A stretch of 61,098 nucleotides of DNA from Verrucomicrobiota bacterium (GTDB lineage: Bacteria; Verrucomicrobiota; Verrucomicrobiia; Limisphaerales; UBA1096). The notes below the pieces were generated by a model. That model searched no databases. It saw nothing but the letters and a program-made list of their open reading frames with translations, and was not told the DNA's origin. Location: positions 1 to 61,098 of the forward strand of contig JACNJE010000110.1 in NCBI GenBank assembly GCA_014382705.1, in the 5' to 3' direction. Every line of letters starts with the position of its first letter. Position 1 is the first letter of the stretch. Of the stretch, positions 3,201 through 59,723 are shown one piece after another. A program made the translations under genes and the position numbers.

Positions 3201-4794
3201 AAACATCGCGCGCATCCGCTACTCCACCCCGGGGGTCGGCCTCATCAGCCCGCCGCCGCATCACGACATTTATTCCATCGAGGACCTGGCGCAGCTCATT
3301 CACGACCTGAAAAACTCGAACCCAGCCGCGCGGGTGAGCGTGAAGCTCGTGTCCGAGGTGGGCGTCGGCACGATCGCCGCCGGCGTGGCCAAGGCGCACG
3401 CGGATCACATCTTGATTTCCGGCGCCTCCGGCGGCACCGGCGCCTCGCCGCTCACCAGTATCAAGCACGCCGGGCTGCCTTGGGAACTGGGCATCGCCGA
3501 GACGCACCAGACGCTGGTGCTGAACGACCTGCGCAGCCGCGTGATGCTGCAGACCGATGGCGGCCTCAAGACCGGCCGCGACGTGGTCATTGCCGCGCTG
3601 CTCGGCGCGGAGGAAATGGGCTTCTCCACCGCGCCGCTCGTCACGATGGGCTGCATCATGATGCGCAAGTGCCACCTCAACACCTGCCCCGTGGGCATCG
3701 CCACGCAGGATCCCGAGCTGCGGAAAAAATTCAACGGCTCGCCCGAGTACGTGGTCAATTACCTGTTCATGGTCGCCGAGGAGGCGCGGCAAATCATGGC
3801 ACAACTGGGCTTCCGCACGATCAACGAAATGGTCGGCCGCGTCGATGCGCTCGAGATGCAACAGGCCATCGACCACTGGAAGGCCGACGGCATCGACCTC
3901 AGTTCCATTCTCACGCCGGTCGAGAAACCGCACGCGGCCGTGGGGACCTATTGCACCCAGGCGCAGGATCATGGTCTCGAGTACGCGCTGGACAATGAGT
4001 TGCTGCGCTTGGCCAAGCGCGCCATCGAGGCCGGCGAACCGGTCGAGATCGAGCGGCCCATCATCAACACCAACCGCACCGTTGGTACCATTCTCAGCCA
4101 CGAATTGGCCAAGGCGCACGGCGAGGCGTTGTTGCCGGAAGACACCGTCCGCATCAGGTTTCACGGTTCCGCCGGCCAAAGTTTCGGTGCCTTCCTGGCC
4201 AAGGGCGTCAGCATGGAACTGGAGGGCGACGCCAACGACTACGTGGGCAAGGGCCTCTCCGGCGGCAAGCTGGTGGTGTATCCGCCCAAGGAGTCCACTT
4301 TTAAGGCGGAGGAAAACATCATCGTCGGCAACGTCTGCCTTTACGGTGCCACAGGCGGCCGGGCGTTTTTCAGGGGTCGCGCCGCCGAGCGCTTCTGTGT
4401 GCGCAACAGCGGCGCCCATGCGGTGATCGAGGGCGTCGGCGACCACGGCTGCGAATACATGACCGGCGGCCGTGCGGTGATCCTCGGCCCCACCGGCCGC
4501 AACTTCGCCGCGGGCATGTCCGGCGGCATCGCCTACATTTGGGATCCCGAAAACGAGTTTGAACCCAACTGCAACATGGAAATGGTGGAACTGGAGCCGG
4601 TCGAGAGCGACGCGGACAGCGGGGAGTTGCTTAGCCTCATCGAGGAACACGCCAAGCGCACCGGTTCCGCCGTGGCCGCCGAGGTGCTGGATAATTGGAG
4701 AAGCGCGCTTGGCCAATTTGTCAAGGTGATGCCGACCGATTACAAGCGCGTGCTGGCCGAGCGCGAACAACGCAAACAGGAATTGGTCGCCTAG
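223..4794 (+). CDS. gltB: Glutamate synthase large subunit
   Basis: N-terminal amidotransferase motif [25 protein letters not shown]-domain QGAKPGEGG and the 3Fe-4S motif [12 protein letters not shown]. Start moved to ATG 223 (ORF track begins at 100). Confidence 0.97.
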
Positions 4795-4812
4795 GCAGCC
4801 GGGGATTTTTCA

Positions 4813-6402
4813 ATGGGAAAGCCAACAGGATTCATGGAGTTCGAGCGCGAGGCGGTGGCGTACCGCGATCCGCTGCAGCGCATAGGGGATTTCGGGGAGA
4901 TTTACACCGACCCGCCCGAGGAACAGTTGCAGACGCAGGGCGCGCGCTGCATGGATTGCGGCGTGCCGTTCTGCCAGTCCGGCACCGGCTGCCCCATCGA
5001 CAACCTCATACCGGAGTGGAACGACCTTGTCTACAAAGGTTGCTGGGAGGAGGCGCTTGAGCGGCTGCACAAGACGAACAACTTTCCGGAATTCACCGGC
5101 CGCACCTGCCCCGCGCCGTGCGAGGGGGCATGTGTGCTGGGCATCACCAATCCGGCGGTGACCATCAAGAACATCGAGAACGCCATCGTCGACCGCGGTT
5201 TTGCTGAGGGCTGGATCACGCCCAAGCCGCCGGCCGTGCGCACCGGCAGGAAGGTGGCCATCGTCGGCTCCGGGCCGGCCGGCCTGACGGCGGCGGCGCA
5301 GCTCAACAAGGTCGGGCACACCGTCACGGTTTACGAGCGCGCCGACCGGATCGGCGGACTGCTGATGTACGGCATCCCGAACATGAAACTCGAAAAGGAC
5401 GTCGTCGAGCGCCGCGTCAATATCCTGCGGGAGGAGGGGGTGCTATTCGTCACGTGTGCCCATGTCGGCCGGGCGGAGGATTTTTCCTCCGGCCACATGA
5501 CGCAGATCATGGAGGAGCGCGGCTGCGGGGTGCAGTACATCGACCCGAACGAGTTGCTGAAGGAAAACGACGCGCTGCTGATGGCCACCGGCGCCACGAA
5601 GCCGTTCGATCCCACAGCGCGATGCCCGGGGCGCGAGTTGGCGGGCGTGCAGTTCGCGATGGATTTCCTCACGCGCAACACCAAGAGCCTGCTCGATTCC
5701 AAGCTCGACGACGGTGCCTACACTTCAGCCAAGGGCAAGCACGTCATCGTGATCGGCGGCGGCGACACCGGCGCGGACTGCATCGGCACATCGCTGCGAC
5801 ACGGCTGCGCCAGCGTCGTCAATTTTGAACTGCTTGACCAACCGCCCGCCAAGCGCGCCGCGAACAACCCCTGGCCGCAGTGGCCGCGCGTGTATCGCCT
5901 CGACTATTCGCACGAGGAGAACAAGGCCAAGCACGGCAACGACCCGCGCGCGTACCACGTGCTGGCCAAGGAGTTCATCGGCGACGACAACGGCCGCGTG
6001 AAGGCCGTGAAAACGGTCGAGGTCGACTGGAGCAAGCCGGTCGAGGGCGGCGCGCCATTCAGCGAGGTGGCCGGCAGTGAAAAGGAATGGCCGGCGGATC
6101 TCGTGCTGTTGGCCACCGGTTTCGTCGGCCCCGAACTGGAAGTCGGCGAAATGCTCGGCCTCGAAACCCAAAACCCGCGCGGCAACTGGCAAACCTTCAT
6201 CGGCGAGCACGGCGAATTCACCACCAACGTCGAGGGCGTCTTCACCGCCGGCGATTGTCGGCGCGGCCAATCCCTTGTCGTCTGGGCCATTAACGAGGGC
6301 CGCGGTGCCGCCCGCGCGATCGACCAATTCCTTGCCGGCACCAGCCTGCTCCCCGCGCCCGGCGTCACGCAGGGCAGCGCCTTGGCTGGTGCGTCAGTTT
6401 AA
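4813..6402 (+). CDS. gltD: Glutamate synthase small subunit
   Basis: MGKPTGF N-terminus, CMDCGVPFC...GCP Fe-S motif, GSGPAG and GGGDTG dinucleotide motifs, [14 protein letters not shown]; follows gltB. Confidence 0.96.
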
Positions 6403-6529
6403 GGGTTGAATGGCCTCGGGCGTTTGTTAGCGTCCCGGTTCATTCAGTGGGGCAACCAACCGGTCACCATGCCAGCAGGGCTTGGCTTGGCAGCATCGGG
6501 TGATGCCCTTGGTTCTTTCTATTGAGATC

Positions 6530-58347: not shown

Positions 58348-58794
58348 TCAGAACGGGACGTCGTCGTCCCCGGGGCCGTCAATAGGCGGCCCGTCTGCGG
58401 GTTGGGAGGGAGGGGGAGCGGATTGCCGTGGGGCAGAACCATCGCTTTCGACTTGTCCACTTCCGCCGCCAACGAAGCTGAACCGTTCGAGTACCACGCC
58501 GAGCCTGCTCCGGTTTTGCCCGGTGTTCTTGTCCTCCCACTGGTCGAGCTTAAGGCGGCCCTCGACCAGGATTGGGCGGCCTTTCTGCATATATTGGCCA
58601 AGTGTCTCAGCCTGTTTTCCAAAGGCATCGATGTCCACGAAAGTGGTTTCCTCCTTCTGCTGGCCCTCGGCGTCCCGCCAGACGCGGTTGACGGCGAGGC
58701 CCAGCTTGGCGATTGCGGTTCCGCTGGGGGTGTAGCGCAACTCGGGGTCGCGCGTCAGGTTGCCCATCAGGATGACTTTGTTGAAGCTCGCCAT
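58348..58794 (-). CDS. ssb: Single-stranded DNA-binding protein
   Basis: NKVILMGNLTRDPELRYT, VEGRL, C-terminal DDDVPF. Confidence 0.97.
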   Translation of the reverse strand: MASFNKVILMGNLTRDPELRYTPSGTAIAKLGLAVNRVWRDAEGQQKEETTFVDIDAFGKQAETLGQYMQKGRPILVEGRLKLDQWEDKNTGQNRSRLGVVLERFSFVGGGSGQVESDGSAPRQSAPPPSQPADGPPIDGPGDDDVPF

Positions 58795-58837
58795 GAAAGG
58801 AGTTTAATCGGGTTGCAATCCGGAATCAACCCGCGAT

Positions 58838-59125
58838 TCACCCCGGCTTGGTGAAGAATACGCGGAAGACGTCTTTGAGCTTGAGCAGGCGCTTTTTCAG
58901 GTCGCCAGTCGCTGCCGGGTCGCCCTCGAACGTGACCTCGAGGTAGTAGCCGTCCGGGTTTTTGCGGTTGGCCACCCGGACAAAGTTCCTCTGGCCCACG
59001 GCGTTGAATTCGCCGACCTTCCCACCGGCCGTGTCGATCTCGGCCGAGATGAGGGTCTGCAGTTCCTCGACGGTGCTCTCACGCCCCGTCTCCTTCAGGA
59101 TGATCGTCCCTTCGTATTTCGTCAT
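58838..59125 (-). CDS. rpsF: 30S ribosomal protein S6
   Basis: KYE..IIL, GGKV, G.R, GYY pattern; 95 aa; precedes ssb. Confidence 0.88.
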   Translation of the reverse strand: MTKYEGTIILKETGRESTVEELQTLISAEIDTAGGKVGEFNAVGQRNFVRVANRKNPDGYYLEVTFEGDPAATGDLKKRLLKLKDVFRVFFTKPG

Positions 59126-59723
59126 CTGTCTTGTTTCCTGTCGGGGAACAGTCCCCGTTGTAATTGTTCATGGCCGGCCCGATGCCTTGCCGCACCCAGC
59201 AGGCGAGTTGGTCCGCCGCCGTTTCCAGCACCTTTCCCAGCAGTTCGGCTTCCGCCTCGGCAAATCTGCCGAGCACGAAGCCGGACACTTCCCGGTTTGG
59301 TTCCGGGCGGCCGACCCCCAGCCGGAGCCGGGCAAAAGCGTCATTTCCCAGCAACCCCTGGATGGAATCCAGACCCCGATGGCCGCCTGTGCCGCCGCCG
59401 GGGCGCATCCGTACGGCACCAAGCGGCAGGTCGATGTCATCGACCACCACCATGATCCGCCCGACGGGAATCTGGTAAAACTTGGCCAACGGCACCACGG
59501 ATTGGCCACTCAAGTTCATGTAGCCCTGTGGCTTGCACAGGAGGACGGGGCTGCCGTCCTGCCTGCCCTTGGCCAAGTGGGTGGCGAACTTTTTGTTCAC
59601 TTCCCACTCCGCGCCCAAGCGCTTGGCCAAGCGGTCGAGCACCATGAACCCGGCGTTGTGCCGCGTGTCGGCGTACCCTTTCCCGGGATTGCCCAAGCCC
59701 GCGATCAGGTATGTCTCTTCCAT
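59079..59723 (-). CDS. pth: Peptidyl-tRNA hydrolase
   Basis: GLGNPG.Y..TRHNAGF, KPQGYMNLSG, GGHRGL, RLRLGVGRP. Confidence 0.96.
   Translation of the reverse strand: MEETYLIAGLGNPGKGYADTRHNAGFMVLDRLAKRLGAEWEVNKKFATHLAKGRQDGSPVLLCKPQGYMNLSGQSVVPLAKFYQIPVGRIMVVVDDIDLPLGAVRMRPGGGTGGHRGLDSIQGLLGNDAFARLRLGVGRPEPNREVSGFVLGRFAEAEAELLGKVLETAADQLACWVRQGIGPAMNNYNGDCSPTGNKTDDEIRRDDHPEGDGA

Follow-up and report, generated by a model that had tools for sequence, protein, structure and literature searches.

A short palindrome (10-16 bases) that recurs about once per kilobase in the genomes of a marine Verrucomicrobiota genus fades in relatives that have lost DNA-uptake genes, and is therefore most likely a self-recognition tag for uptake. 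Judged from genome comparison, it is probably a DNA-uptake/self-recognition sequence that transformation maintains and that is recognised in double-stranded form. The motif was first noticed in a stretch of 61,098 nt (the window), where the preliminary description reported about 68 copies of the core TTGGCCAA. An exact count gives 68, against 1.68 ± 1.31 expected (maximum 7) from dinucleotide shuffles, none of which (of 100) came up to that number. The full form GCGCTTGGCCAAGCGC occurs seven times, at exactly the positions first reported, vs 0.00 in the shuffles. The window features are as follows.

4009..59630, strandless because palindromic: 68 copies of the core TTGGCCAA, starting at 4009, 4105, 4709, 6845, 8305, 9484, 9793, 10082, 11518, 11710, 11836, 15126, 15259, 15562, 15768, 16282, 20961, 20994, 22335, 24632, 24653, 25634, 26269, 26473, 29059, 29491, 31343, 31397, 31512, 31772, 32579, 34349, 34520, 35313, 37140, 37452, 39278, 39793, 40803, 40838, 40872, 40953, 41727, 42399, 43344, 43880, 44886, 45816, 45891, 46930, 47542, 48915, 49411, 49552, 49596, 51889, 52243, 53074, 53253, 55550, 55969, 55981, 56511, 57254, 58594, 59482, 59569 and 59623
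4005..4020, strandless: full 16-bp palindrome GCGCTTGGCCAAGCGC, within gltB
6841..6856, strandless: full 16-bp palindrome, within pntA
22331..22346, strandless: full 16-bp palindrome
26265..26280, strandless: full 16-bp palindrome, within a multihaem cytochrome gene
34345..34360, strandless: full 16-bp palindrome, within a metallopeptidase/Ig-domain gene (1371 aa)
43876..43891, strandless: full 16-bp palindrome, nuo operon
49592..49607, strandless: full 16-bp palindrome, within dprA
49377..50477, minus strand: dprA (DNA-processing protein A, 366 aa), Pfam DNA_processg_A 9.6e-77 and DprA_WH
43262..43395, no strand assigned: one copy of an intergenic repeat of ~115 bp that is dispersed in the genome, in which a pair of short GC-rich hairpins encloses the motif copy 43340-43353

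A Pfam check of gene identities in the window gave GltB, a GltD-like protein, PntA, NuoL, NuoG, RNase R, DprA and CarA.

Genome-wide, 4335 cores were found in 4.02 Mb (1.08 per kb), together with 3286 10-mers, 1844 12-mers, 1172 14-mers and 283 16-mers. The strict core was defined as CTTGGCCAAG and the full form as GCGCTTGGCCAAGCGC. All of the five most abundant 8-mers of the genome are pieces of the motif, and confinement to a single contig is ruled out, as 180 of 181 contigs carry cores. Alignment of 4333 genomic copies yielded the consensus S-C-G-C-TTGGCCAA-G-C-G-S, with a flanking C/G share of 86% at ±1, 66% at ±2 and 64% at ±3, and no information content outside ±4 of the core. Information is highest at the centre of the palindrome, and departures are mostly found at the outer positions. 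About 3324-3335 of the 4335 cores lie within called genes. The three reading frames proposed earlier were all counted among 3335 in-gene cores: 1969 read TTG GCC AAx (LAK/LAN), 1159 xTT GGC CAA (mostly LGQ) and 207 TGG CCA (xWPS). These readings are also the most over-represented tripeptides of the proteome (WPS 4.95x, LAK 4.51x, LGQ 4.32x). Similarly, the Pasteurellaceae USS is hyper-abundant and is described as shaping the proteome through its frames (PMC2817400).

The enrichment persists under codon-aware nulls. Synonymous-codon shuffles (20 shuffles) gave 404 ± 14 in-gene cores vs 3335 observed (8-fold) and 113 ± 10 10-mers vs 2409 (21-fold), and codon-order shuffles (20) gave 111 and 17. 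That the motif arises passively, from base composition, codon usage, a peptide motif or a small mobile repeat that has spread, is thus extremely improbable, and is refuted by the nulls as far as these go: dinucleotide, Markov, synonymous and codon-order versions all leave enrichment. Such an origin would fit the higher motif density at higher GC, seen inside the genome and also between genomes of the genus (Spearman 0.59), and the one motif copy included in the ~115-bp repeat. However, that repeat has 118 BLAST matches in the genome vs 4335 cores, nothing is conserved past ±4, flanks are similar in only 14 of 1987 close pairs, and at similar GC (48-49% at the compared locus) the relatives G011 and G005 have about 700 copies per Mb and G041 (48%) has 133. 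Windows with a GC of 40-50% have 0.25 copies per kb, those above 65% GC 1.27 per kb. The motif is thus scarce in DNA that is likely foreign, resembling the DUS, reported to be poorer in recently acquired DNA (PMC2397512).

The ~115-bp repeat, copies of which are also found in motif-rich relatives, is separate from the palindrome; in the bin with its window copy (43262..43395), summed contig depth jumped to 1169 vs about 13 (run X5). It is of the REP/BIME and MITE-like kind. Those elements share with the motif that they are palindromic, dispersed and present in hundreds to thousands of copies, but they are 20-150 bp long, intergenic and conserved over their full length, whereas the motif is mostly genic and has nothing conserved past 16 bp. 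Nor is the motif an assembly artefact. Contigs of three other marine runs, from three studies, cover window positions 39000-45000 with a single differing letter (42236), and one of them spans 39000-42880 with its seven cores intact; at 43875-43892, contigs from elsewhere have the 16-mer in common and loose ends there. The motif also recurs in 20 separately assembled genomes of the genus.

The motif is specific to one marine Verrucomicrobiota genus, represented by metagenome bins of uncultured organisms, with a completeness of 59-93%. The 10-mer reaches 291-923 per Mb in 20 of the 26 genomes of the genus, with 133 in G041 and 12-23 in the remaining five; counts in 16 genomes from 16 other families are 0-48, near the control (2-31). 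Copies are, by comparison of sequences, actively maintained. When five close relatives were pooled and cores set against phase-matched 8-mers, 72 of 126 cores were intact in phase 0 (vs 0.405), 36 of 49 in phase 1 (vs 0.331) and 8 of 10 in phase 2 (vs 0.322). Synonymous codons, too, were better conserved inside the motif than outside: CTT was kept in 37 of 37 cases inside the motif vs 175 of 394 elsewhere, CCA in 9 of 10 vs 60 of 165, and TTG in 91 of 121 vs 536 of 953. Between species, motif sites appear and vanish in a mosaic pattern.

Motif density follows the transformation genes. Among the 26 genus genomes, ComEC (PF03772) was detected in 14, DprA (PF02481) in 14 and ComM (PF13335) in 15, and secretin (PF00263), the positive control, in all 26. 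comEC, dprA and comM all went undetected in seven genomes, and exactly these seven have the lowest motif densities (12-291 vs 373-923 per Mb); the remaining 19 hold 43 of 57 possible detections. No more than three independent losses underlie this link (those of the poor clade, of G041 and of G010), and its Mann-Whitney p ignores relatedness. The density of G010 differs little from that of its sister G002 (291 vs 383 per Mb), and G011 has 705 per Mb though ComEC and DprA were undetected and comM has a stop, in regions of G011 that are unassembled. The three genes are unlinked, and their absences are, judged by synteny, real deletions with intact flanks. At the spot nuoN-dprA-next gene, all 5 of the close rich relatives examined have dprA, while the gene is split in G005 and deleted in G010, G041 and G006. 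At its own locus comEC has been deleted from two genomes (G010 and G004), G041 has other sequence in its place, and its flanking genes lie 2.6-2.7 kb closer in G001, G008 and G024; comM is deleted in G041 and G008. A self-DNA tag, one of the options in the preliminary description, thus gains comparative support, as density and purity track comEC, dprA and comM. ComEC is found in 58 of 61 sampled genomes of the order, where the motif is absent, so the machinery alone does not explain the motif.

In a genus tree of five Nuo proteins only, rooted on 8 outgroups, motif-rich genomes stand on either side of the root and the poor clade is nested among them. An AU test, on a group chosen after the tree was seen, rejected rich genomes plus G041 as one clade (p = 0.0002), and poor genomes retain 6-14 exact 12-mers vs 0-1 in the control. 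Together with the spread of ComEC, this argues that the ancestor of the genus had both motif and competence and that the two disappeared jointly, the poor clade being by this evidence a secondary loss. In the sequences compared, erosion is graded across the genus. The one-transition variant CTTGGTCAAG amounts to 1-2% of the perfect 10-mer in the densest genomes, 18% in G010, 32% in G041 and 28-52% in genomes of the poor clade; the correlation of this ratio with density is -0.96 (Spearman), and the 12-mer/10-mer ratio drops from 0.56-0.62 to 0.41, 0.34 and 0.15-0.24. The GC of the poor clade at the compared locus fell from about 58% to about 40%, which would by itself erode a GC-rich motif.

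No methyltransferase tracks the motif. In this respect it departs from cyanobacterial HIP1 (GCGATCGC) and the alternate HIPs, which are likewise GC-rich, hyper-abundant palindromes found in genes in all frames. As described for HIP1, conservation exceeds neutral expectation (PMC5861425) and deviations are skewed to outer positions (PMC4390886). These features, at about one copy per kb, would suit a motif made by methyltransferase-linked mismatch or very-short-patch repair at GGCC, TGGCCA or GCGC, as first suggested. HIP1 and its alternates have cognate methyltransferases (PMC4390886), but none is conserved in this genus. The only C5 methylase of the genome (HTH_17 and DNA_methylase), on a 5.7-kb contig, has a match in 0 of 25 relatives, and just 2 of the 26 genus genomes have PF00145, of which one is motif-rich and the other motif-poor. 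PF01555, PF02086, PF02384 and Vsr (PF03852) were not found in the genome itself (90.7% complete); five further motif-rich genomes gave no PF01555 or PF02086 and one marginal PF02384 match (20.1 bits, in one genome). The HIP1/methylase model is therefore not supported, and we consider such repair very unlikely. HIP1 further differs in sequence and phylum, does not share the extension to 16 bp, and has a periodicity of 10-90 kb (PMC5861425) vs a helical repeat here; a recent proposal makes it, too, an uptake sequence, given its correlation with proteins of pilus and competence (PMC13756078). The first description of the motif, as an undescribed, HIP-like, highly iterated palindrome acting at the DNA level, is borne out.

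Copies up to about 300 bp apart follow a period of 10.45 bp within genes, between genes and across gene boundaries, reproduced in two relatives (G011 and G018). Controls gave R of about 0.03-0.08, save three sets with 1-16 close pairs. The period is that of B-form DNA, which argues for duplex recognition, and DNA is still double-stranded at the outer step of uptake. The phasing, the perfect palindrome with its information highest at the centre, and the short-range clustering (521 gaps < 100 bp vs 331 ± 15 under random placement) would also suit the site of an abundant, sequence-specific, dimeric nucleoid-associated protein, with a role in chromosome structure rather than uptake, as has been proposed for HIP1 too (PMC5861425). 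We think this unlikely: a nucleoid protein, an option raised at the outset, gives no reason for density and purity to follow comEC, dprA and comM through three losses, no candidate protein was found, and there are no operator-like arrays among the genome's copies, the largest cluster being 5 copies in 269 bp. An equally doubtful alternative is a role once DNA has entered the cell, in which the motif would signal recombination or processing, either Chi-like or as a single-strand hairpin handled by DprA/ComM. Cytoplasmic dprA and comM are tracked as well as comEC, and the 16-mer, read as sequence, could fold on a single strand into a 6-bp stem with a 4-nt loop; but transforming DNA is single-stranded in the cytoplasm, and the B-DNA phasing argues for a duplex. 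The known Chi and KOPS-type signals, moreover, are asymmetric and skewed by strand.

For a DNA-uptake sequence, the preferred reading, a putative receptor belonging to the transformation machinery, at the surface or in the periplasm, would bind the motif on double-stranded DNA, possibly contacting more than one phased copy on the same duplex face. Motif-bearing DNA of the same genus would then be preferentially imported and recombined via ComEC, DprA, ComM and RecA. The uptake bias, with or without selection, would spread and repair copies chromosome-wide, in genes and in every one of the three frames, with enough force to alter the proteome. Where transformation genes are lost, comparison suggests that this force ends and copies decay by mutation. 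The molecular-drive model of biased uptake plus recombination developed for the USS (PMC1939737) would apply to this motif as well.

The Neisseriaceae DUS, read by the minor pilin ComP, is also a short motif (10-12 nt) found about once per kb in genic and intergenic DNA. It forms a 'dialect' common to related species (PMC3630211) and is tied to transformation and recombination (PMC2397512), as motif density here follows transformation genes. The DUS is asymmetric, however, and belongs to another phylum, whereas the Verrucomicrobiota motif is a perfect palindrome of up to 16 bp whose receptor is putative; helical phasing between neighbouring copies is unreported in the DUES literature searched. 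In the USS the core is asymmetric and the phased AT tracts belong to a single element, whereas in this genus the phasing is between separate copies. The uptake sequences known so far lack symmetry and are frequently located in terminators. A pair of USS within 100 bp brought no uptake increase in Haemophilus influenzae (PMC7811141), so neither a palindromic form nor helical phasing is known as a feature of such sequences. If the predicted uptake role is true, the motif would do in a marine Verrucomicrobiota genus what the DUS does in Neisseriaceae and the USS in Pasteurellaceae.

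The preliminary description had counted 68 TTGGCCAA cores in the window and located seven copies of the full 16-bp palindrome GCGCTTGGCCAAGCGC. Both counts are exact and every full copy was correctly placed; dinucleotide-preserving shuffles gave 1.68 ± 1.31 cores (maximum 7; 0 of 100 reached 68) and no full palindrome. The window is contig C120 of a genome of 4,017,201 bases in 181 contigs (longest 139 kb; 61.2% GC), and the motif is not confined to it: it is present on 180 of the 181 contigs (median density 1.07 per kb), and the five most frequent 8-mers of the genome are pieces of it. 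For the 10-mer CTTGGCCAAG, 5.6 copies are expected under an order-1 Markov model, and the reversed control has 19.

Copies of the motif forms in the genome of the window (G000)
8-mer core: 4335 copies, 1.08 per kb
10-mer: 3286 copies
12-mer: 1844 copies
14-mer: 1172 copies
16-mer: 283 copies

Alignment of 4333 copies gave the consensus S-C-G-C-TTGGCCAA-G-C-G-S, with C/G frequencies of 86%, 66% and 64% at ±1, ±2 and ±3 of the core; past ±4, codon periodicity alone remains. Single-letter changes are tolerated in the outer part of the core (GTTGGCCAAG, 284 copies; CCTGGCCAAG, 222), and variants of the central GGCC are rare (4–29 each). A REP or MITE element, intergenic with 20–150 conserved bp, was rejected as the nature of the motif, since nothing is conserved beyond ±4 and most copies are genic. 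Three other studies supply contigs of independent marine metagenome runs, which answer doubt about assembly artefacts: over 39000–45000 they differ from the window by a single C>T, and one contig spans seven cores. Runs X4, X9 and X11 left some bins uncovered, from which nothing is drawn. A viral feature is ruled out by the sparse viral copies: 27 stretches of viral contigs held the 16-mer, once each, and the richest had 4 cores in 10 kb.

Three side observations concern the arrangement of copies. In G000, 68 core pairs lie exactly 12 bp apart as tandem TTGGCCAAGCGC units, in which neighbouring 16-mers share GCGC; 29 of the 68 are outside called genes, and window 55969–55988 is an example. At window 43262–43395, two short GC-rich hairpins (CCTTCTCCC...GGGAGAAGG and CCCTCTCCC...GGGAGAGGG) flank one motif copy within a dispersed intergenic repeat of about 115 bp that looks REP- or MITE-like. 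This repeat has 118 BLAST matches in G000 (C141:5198–5775, in tandem about 144 bp apart, and C7, C96, C58, C62 and other contigs) and copies in motif-rich relatives, and the summed depth of metagenome contigs rises about 90-fold in its bin. In Logan contigs of several runs, many contigs that originate outside this locus stop or fork precisely at strong copies of the motif (window 39787–39806 and 43875–43892), leaving loose ends, and the depth there is 4–5 times higher than in neighbouring bins. The motif disrupts assembly graphs built from short reads, which may add to the fragmentation of these bins.

Genes were called with an ORF and codon-score caller made for this analysis (2523 genes). 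Fully within them lie 3324 of the 4335 cores (1.0 per kb); a further 1011 (1.42 per kb) fall outside. The calls cover 82% of bases, and the outside class includes missed genes. All three frames are used, as had been noted from the window: TTG GCC AAx 1969 times, xTT GGC CAA 1159 times and TGG CCA 207 times. A within-gene synonymous shuffle gave 404 ± 14 cores against 3335 observed, and 113 ± 10 10-mers against 2409; shuffling codon order left 111 cores and 17 10-mers. From these codon nulls, the spread over contigs and the independent assemblies, the enrichment persists under a codon-aware null and belongs to neither one contig nor one assembly. WPS (4.95-fold), LAK (4.51-fold) and LGQ (4.32-fold) are the most over-represented of all tripeptides in the proteome; GQA and AKR come next, and the motif bends the proteome itself.

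Relatives of the window's NuoF protein are metagenome bins titled Verrucomicrobiota, Limisphaerales or Pedosphaera, and the runs holding this DNA are marine. Within the GTDB genus the motif is unevenly distributed.

Density of the 10-mer in 26 genomes of the genus (sizes of relatives are rounded values)
20 genomes: 291–923 per Mb
G041: 133 per Mb
G001, G004, G006, G008 and G024 (the motif-poor clade): 12–23 per Mb

Sixteen other families of the order, one genome each, are at background (0–48 copies against 2–31 for the reversed control), and the same consensus was recovered in G000 and in the motif-rich G011 and G018. GC content at a shared locus is 39–42% in the five poor genomes and 55–61% in most rich ones, and motif erosion in the poor clade is confounded by its fall in GC. 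GC alone is no explanation, since G011 and G005 (48–49% GC) carry about 700 per Mb and G041 (48% GC) carries 133. The span of 39% to 61% GC at one locus within a single GTDB genus is an observation in its own right (nuo region, loci L085–L109; outgroups L002–L080).

The fate of window cores was followed over up to 42 kb of synteny.

Aligned window cores intact in relatives
G015: 31 of 41
G022: 26 of 41
G017: 27 of 50
G021: 21 of 45
G019: 19 of 31
G041: 3 of 32
G004: 3 of 12
G006: 0 of 11

The first five of these genomes are 84–87% identical in nucleotides to the window. Pooled over them, core survival compared with that of phase-matched 8-mers was 0.57 versus 0.41 in phase 0, 0.73 versus 0.33 in phase 1 and 0.80 versus 0.32 in phase 2, and LAK or LAN peptides encoded without the motif survived in 18 of 49 cases. 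Synonymous codons were kept more often inside the motif than outside it: CTT 37/37 versus 175/394, CAA 43/46 versus 278/382, CCA 9/10 versus 60/165 and TTG 91/121 versus 536/953. In a nuo operon alignment (6.9 kb, 14 genus genomes), cores occupy 12 columns with mosaic sharing, and the poor genomes usually encode the same or a similar peptide there with other codons. The motif is maintained, and the force acts on DNA rather than on peptides. Comparable conservation of HIP1, the highly iterated palindrome of cyanobacteria, is reported in the accessible part of Xu et al. (PMC5861425).

Methylation-directed repair had been proposed as one origin of such a motif. For HIPs, the available text of Elhai 2015 (PMC4390886) describes, in every case of an abundant motif, a methyltransferase specific to all or the inner part of it. 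Four Pfam families (PF00145, PF01555, PF02086, PF02384) and Vsr were searched in these incomplete bins, G000 being 90.7% complete, and a single DNA methylase was found in G000:

C53, 358–1899, minus strand: C5 methylase of 513 aa, HTH_17 plus DNA_methylase (locus L081, a 5.7-kb contig)

The best PDB sequence match of its N-terminal catalytic part is M.HaeIII. It was found in 0 of the 25 other genus genomes and is probably on a mobile element; PF00145 as a family occurs in 2 of 26, G000 and the poor G008. G000 gave no match to PF01555, PF02086, PF02384 or Vsr. Among five more rich genomes (84–93% complete), PF01555 and PF02086 were found in 0/5 and PF02384 in 1/5, as one marginal 20-bit match. 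No conserved DNA methylase was found in these families and genomes, and the proposed origin receives no support: the model fails its defining test, with the one methylase unique to G000 and the other families not found apart from the marginal match. Since no methylase of the families searched tracks the motif, the companion that defines HIPs in Elhai's analysis is missing here.

A recent study (PMC13756078) connects HIP1 with proteins of pili and competence, and transformation genes were sought in the genus because of that link. The suggested search for genes whose presence follows the motif was productive for comEC, dprA and comM, which track motif density. ComEC (PF03772) and DprA (PF02481) were each detected in 14 of 26 genomes and ComM (PF13335; ChlI, Mg_chelatase and C-terminal architecture) in 15 of 26, all matches being in motif-rich genomes. 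Genomes with none of the three, namely G010, G041 and the five poor ones, are exactly those with the seven lowest densities (12–291 versus 373–923 per Mb), a correlation that comprises at most three independent losses. The remaining 19 gave 43 of 57 possible detections, as expected at 59–93% bin completeness, with calls of absence in the rich G007, G011, G017 and G021 falling partly in unassembled regions. Secretin domains, a positive control that does not discriminate, are present in 26 of 26, so that the poor bins are not simply empty; G000 has all three genes and secretins. A ComEA search through HHH_3 matched 370–530-aa frames of rich and poor genomes alike and was set aside as uninformative. 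Dependence of the motif on transformation machinery is suggested by gene presence and co-variation, rather than by competence itself.

Two protein observations arose in these searches. One secretin domain (G000:C16:32713–33210; orthologues in G006, G008, G013, G018, G019 and G041) lies within a genus-conserved open frame of about 3900–4300 aa, which is unusually large or comprises several genes with no stop between them. A 481-aa DUF1501 paralogue family (G000:C170:2670–4115 and 6246–7691), with dozens of members in every genus genome, was the source of many secondary DNA matches in the comM-locus search.

The absences of comEC, dprA and comM are deletions with intact neighbours.

State of the three loci in genomes of the genus
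nuoN-dprA-next gene: dprA present in G015, G017, G019, G021 and G022; split in G005
nuoN-dprA-next gene: dprA absent, with gaps of 535 bp in G010, 157 bp in G041 and 528 bp in G006
ffh-comEC-vanZ: comEC missing in G010 and G004 (gaps of 150–210 bp)
ffh-comEC-vanZ: flanks 2.6–2.7 kb closer in G001, G008 and G024
ffh-comEC-vanZ: in G041 (C40, L194:4131–6319), a gene for a 481-aa protein that joins trypsin-like and Endonuclease I domains, together with a TPR gene, replaces comEC
comM locus: comM excised in G008 and in G041, where 29 bp remain
comM locus: in G010 the contig stops 101 bp beyond the neighbour gene, with no comM sequence

At the G041 comEC site, a DNA-degrading enzyme (Endonuclease I, of an extracellular nuclease family) thus stands in place of a DNA-import channel. 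Candidate early decay of competence genes, with assembly errors possible, was seen in two still-rich genomes (G011:C90:9221–9514, G005:C14:806–901 and G005:C567:1532–2588): comM has an in-frame TAG in G011 and is left as a fragment with TGA in G005, where dprA is split into two pieces that overlap.

In a sample of 61 genomes from the whole order, 58 carry ComEC. A maximum likelihood tree of 18 genomes of the genus and 8 outgroups (five Nuo proteins, 1991 columns) placed 11 rich genomes in one clade and the rich G011 and G014 in another, together with G041 and four of the five poor genomes, those amenable to inclusion. A tree uniting the rich genomes with G041, a group named after the tree had been seen, was rejected (AU p = 0.0002). 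Poor genomes retain 6–14 exact 12-mers against 0–1 for the control and an estimated 0.1 or so expected by composition. Relative to perfect 10-mers, copies of the transition variant CTTGGTCAAG amount to 1–2% in the densest genomes, 18% in G010, 32% in G041 and 28–52% in the poor clade, with a Spearman correlation of -0.96 against density; motif erosion is graded. The simplest history has both motif and competence in the ancestor of the genus, with the genes later lost in the poor clade, G041 and G010 and the motif eroding afterwards. Two points weigh against the uptake reading proposed below: G010 differs only modestly in density from its sister G002, and G011 is still motif-dense despite its broken comM. 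Outgroup loci have 53–63% GC, which makes low GC a derived state in the clade without competence genes, and transformation loss and GC fall may be linked through a lost recombination-associated GC bias.

Distances between cores carry a further signal. In G000 a period of 10.45 bp exceeds the 3-bp codon period (power 766 versus 437; 2068 pairs at up to 320 bp).

Phasing by core-core distance in G000 (R, mean resultant length)
15–100 bp: R 0.34 (n = 664; null about 0.04)
101–200 bp: R 0.25
201–320 bp: R 0.11
over 320 bp: no phasing

Phasing holds within single genes (p ~1e-24), between genes and intergenic DNA (R 0.46 and 0.24) and between intergenic copies (R 0.33). It is spread over 667 genes, and one pair per gene gives R = 0.27 (n = 1102, p = 3e-35); with this value, and similar flanks in 14 of 1987 pairs, duplication was rejected as its cause. 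Tripeptides L.K and LA[KRE] encoded without the motif are unphased (R ~0.05), as are six of eight other abundant 8-mers (R 0.03–0.08); four control sets (two 8-mers, non-motif LAK and non-motif LGQ) had 1–16 close pairs each, too few to inform. A protein-helix cause of a 10.5-nt period was rejected on the unphased tripeptides and 8-mers and on the phasing of pairs that involve intergenic copies. Two divergent rich genomes that share the consensus replicate the effect: G011 (256 kb; R = 0.44, n = 138, best period 10.40) and G018 (171 kb; R = 0.39, n = 93, best period 10.55). Copies are also clustered, with 521 gaps below 100 bp against 331 ± 15 under random placement; operator-like arrays were sought and none was found, the largest cluster having 5 copies in 269 bp. 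The accessible part of PMC5861425 (Xu 2018) reports HIP1 periodicity at 10–90 kb alone, and the available portions of the papers examined on DNA-uptake-enhancing sequences (DUES) do not mention helical or periodic spacing, two USS within 100 bp being of no benefit (PMC7811141).

Phasing at the B-DNA repeat indicates that whatever reads the motif recognises it in duplex form and contacts more than one copy simultaneously. A binding site for an architectural, nucleoid-associated protein would account for the phasing and leave the correlation with competence genes unexplained; we regard it as improbable. A palindromic DNA-uptake or self-recognition sequence ranks first, and on genomic evidence we consider it the probable reading. 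A clade-specific palindrome that is maintained, and that vanishes with three unlinked transformation genes, is as the uptake-bias (molecular drive) model predicts, and duplex, multi-copy reading fits the outer uptake step better than the cytoplasmic single-strand step.

Like the DNA-uptake sequences of Neisseriaceae (DUS) and Pasteurellaceae (USS), the motif exceeds expectation by orders of magnitude, occurs throughout the genome at about 1 per kb, is common to related species and is absent outside the group (16 of 16 other families at background). Unlike these asymmetric sequences, often found as inverted terminator pairs, it is a perfect palindrome with 3324 of 4335 cores in called genes, and it is phased. 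It resembles HIP1 as a GC-rich palindrome at about 1 per kb, coding in several frames and conserved above neutral, and differs in having no accompanying methylase; its phylum sets it apart from both systems. By analogy, the motif would work like DUS/USS and look like HIP.

The available part of a preprint (10.1101/2025.10.24.684340) treats specific uptake sequences as a trait of two proteobacterial families, and the accessible text of PMC13756078 treats HIP1 as an uptake sequence as a current question. A description of this motif was not found in the literature searched, which excluded subscription journals and the supplements of PMC4390886, PMC5861425 and PMC13756078. Queries with TTGGCCAA and CTTGGCCAAG returned no title on a bacterial genome motif among the matches listed, those for highly iterated palindromes gave cyanobacterial titles throughout among the matches listed, and those for DNA uptake sequences in Verrucomicrobia gave unrelated titles.

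More tentatively, and with the balance somewhat against it, a 'self' tag for DNA uptake could have been invented independently for a third time, in Verrucomicrobiota, and the motif would be a new type of such a tag: a 16-bp perfect palindrome read as duplex by a multivalent receptor. The putative receptor would engage several copies on one helix face (10.45-bp phasing over about 300 bp), and the drive would be strong enough for the motif's three translations to top the proteome's tripeptides. The tag would be lost with comEC, dprA and comM, motif erosion would follow, and the loss might perhaps have taken GC from about 58% to about 40% through lost recombination-linked GC bias. Helical phasing is an unexpected structural clue that predicts receptor geometry.

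The genus offers a natural experiment, with repeated clean deletions of comEC, dprA and comM and graded motif decay; this series tests the upkeep of uptake sequences by transformation itself and provides a rough clock of decay. As a marker the motif is sharp, useful both in binning these genomes and in recognising foreign DNA within them, and it may serve as a handle for the genetic tractability of these bacteria. If the proposed reading is true, it would lend weight from beyond the cyanobacteria to the idea, recently put forward, that palindromes of the HIP type serve as uptake signals, and self-preferring transformation would be more widespread, reaching uncultured ocean bacteria such as the abundant marine Verrucomicrobiota.
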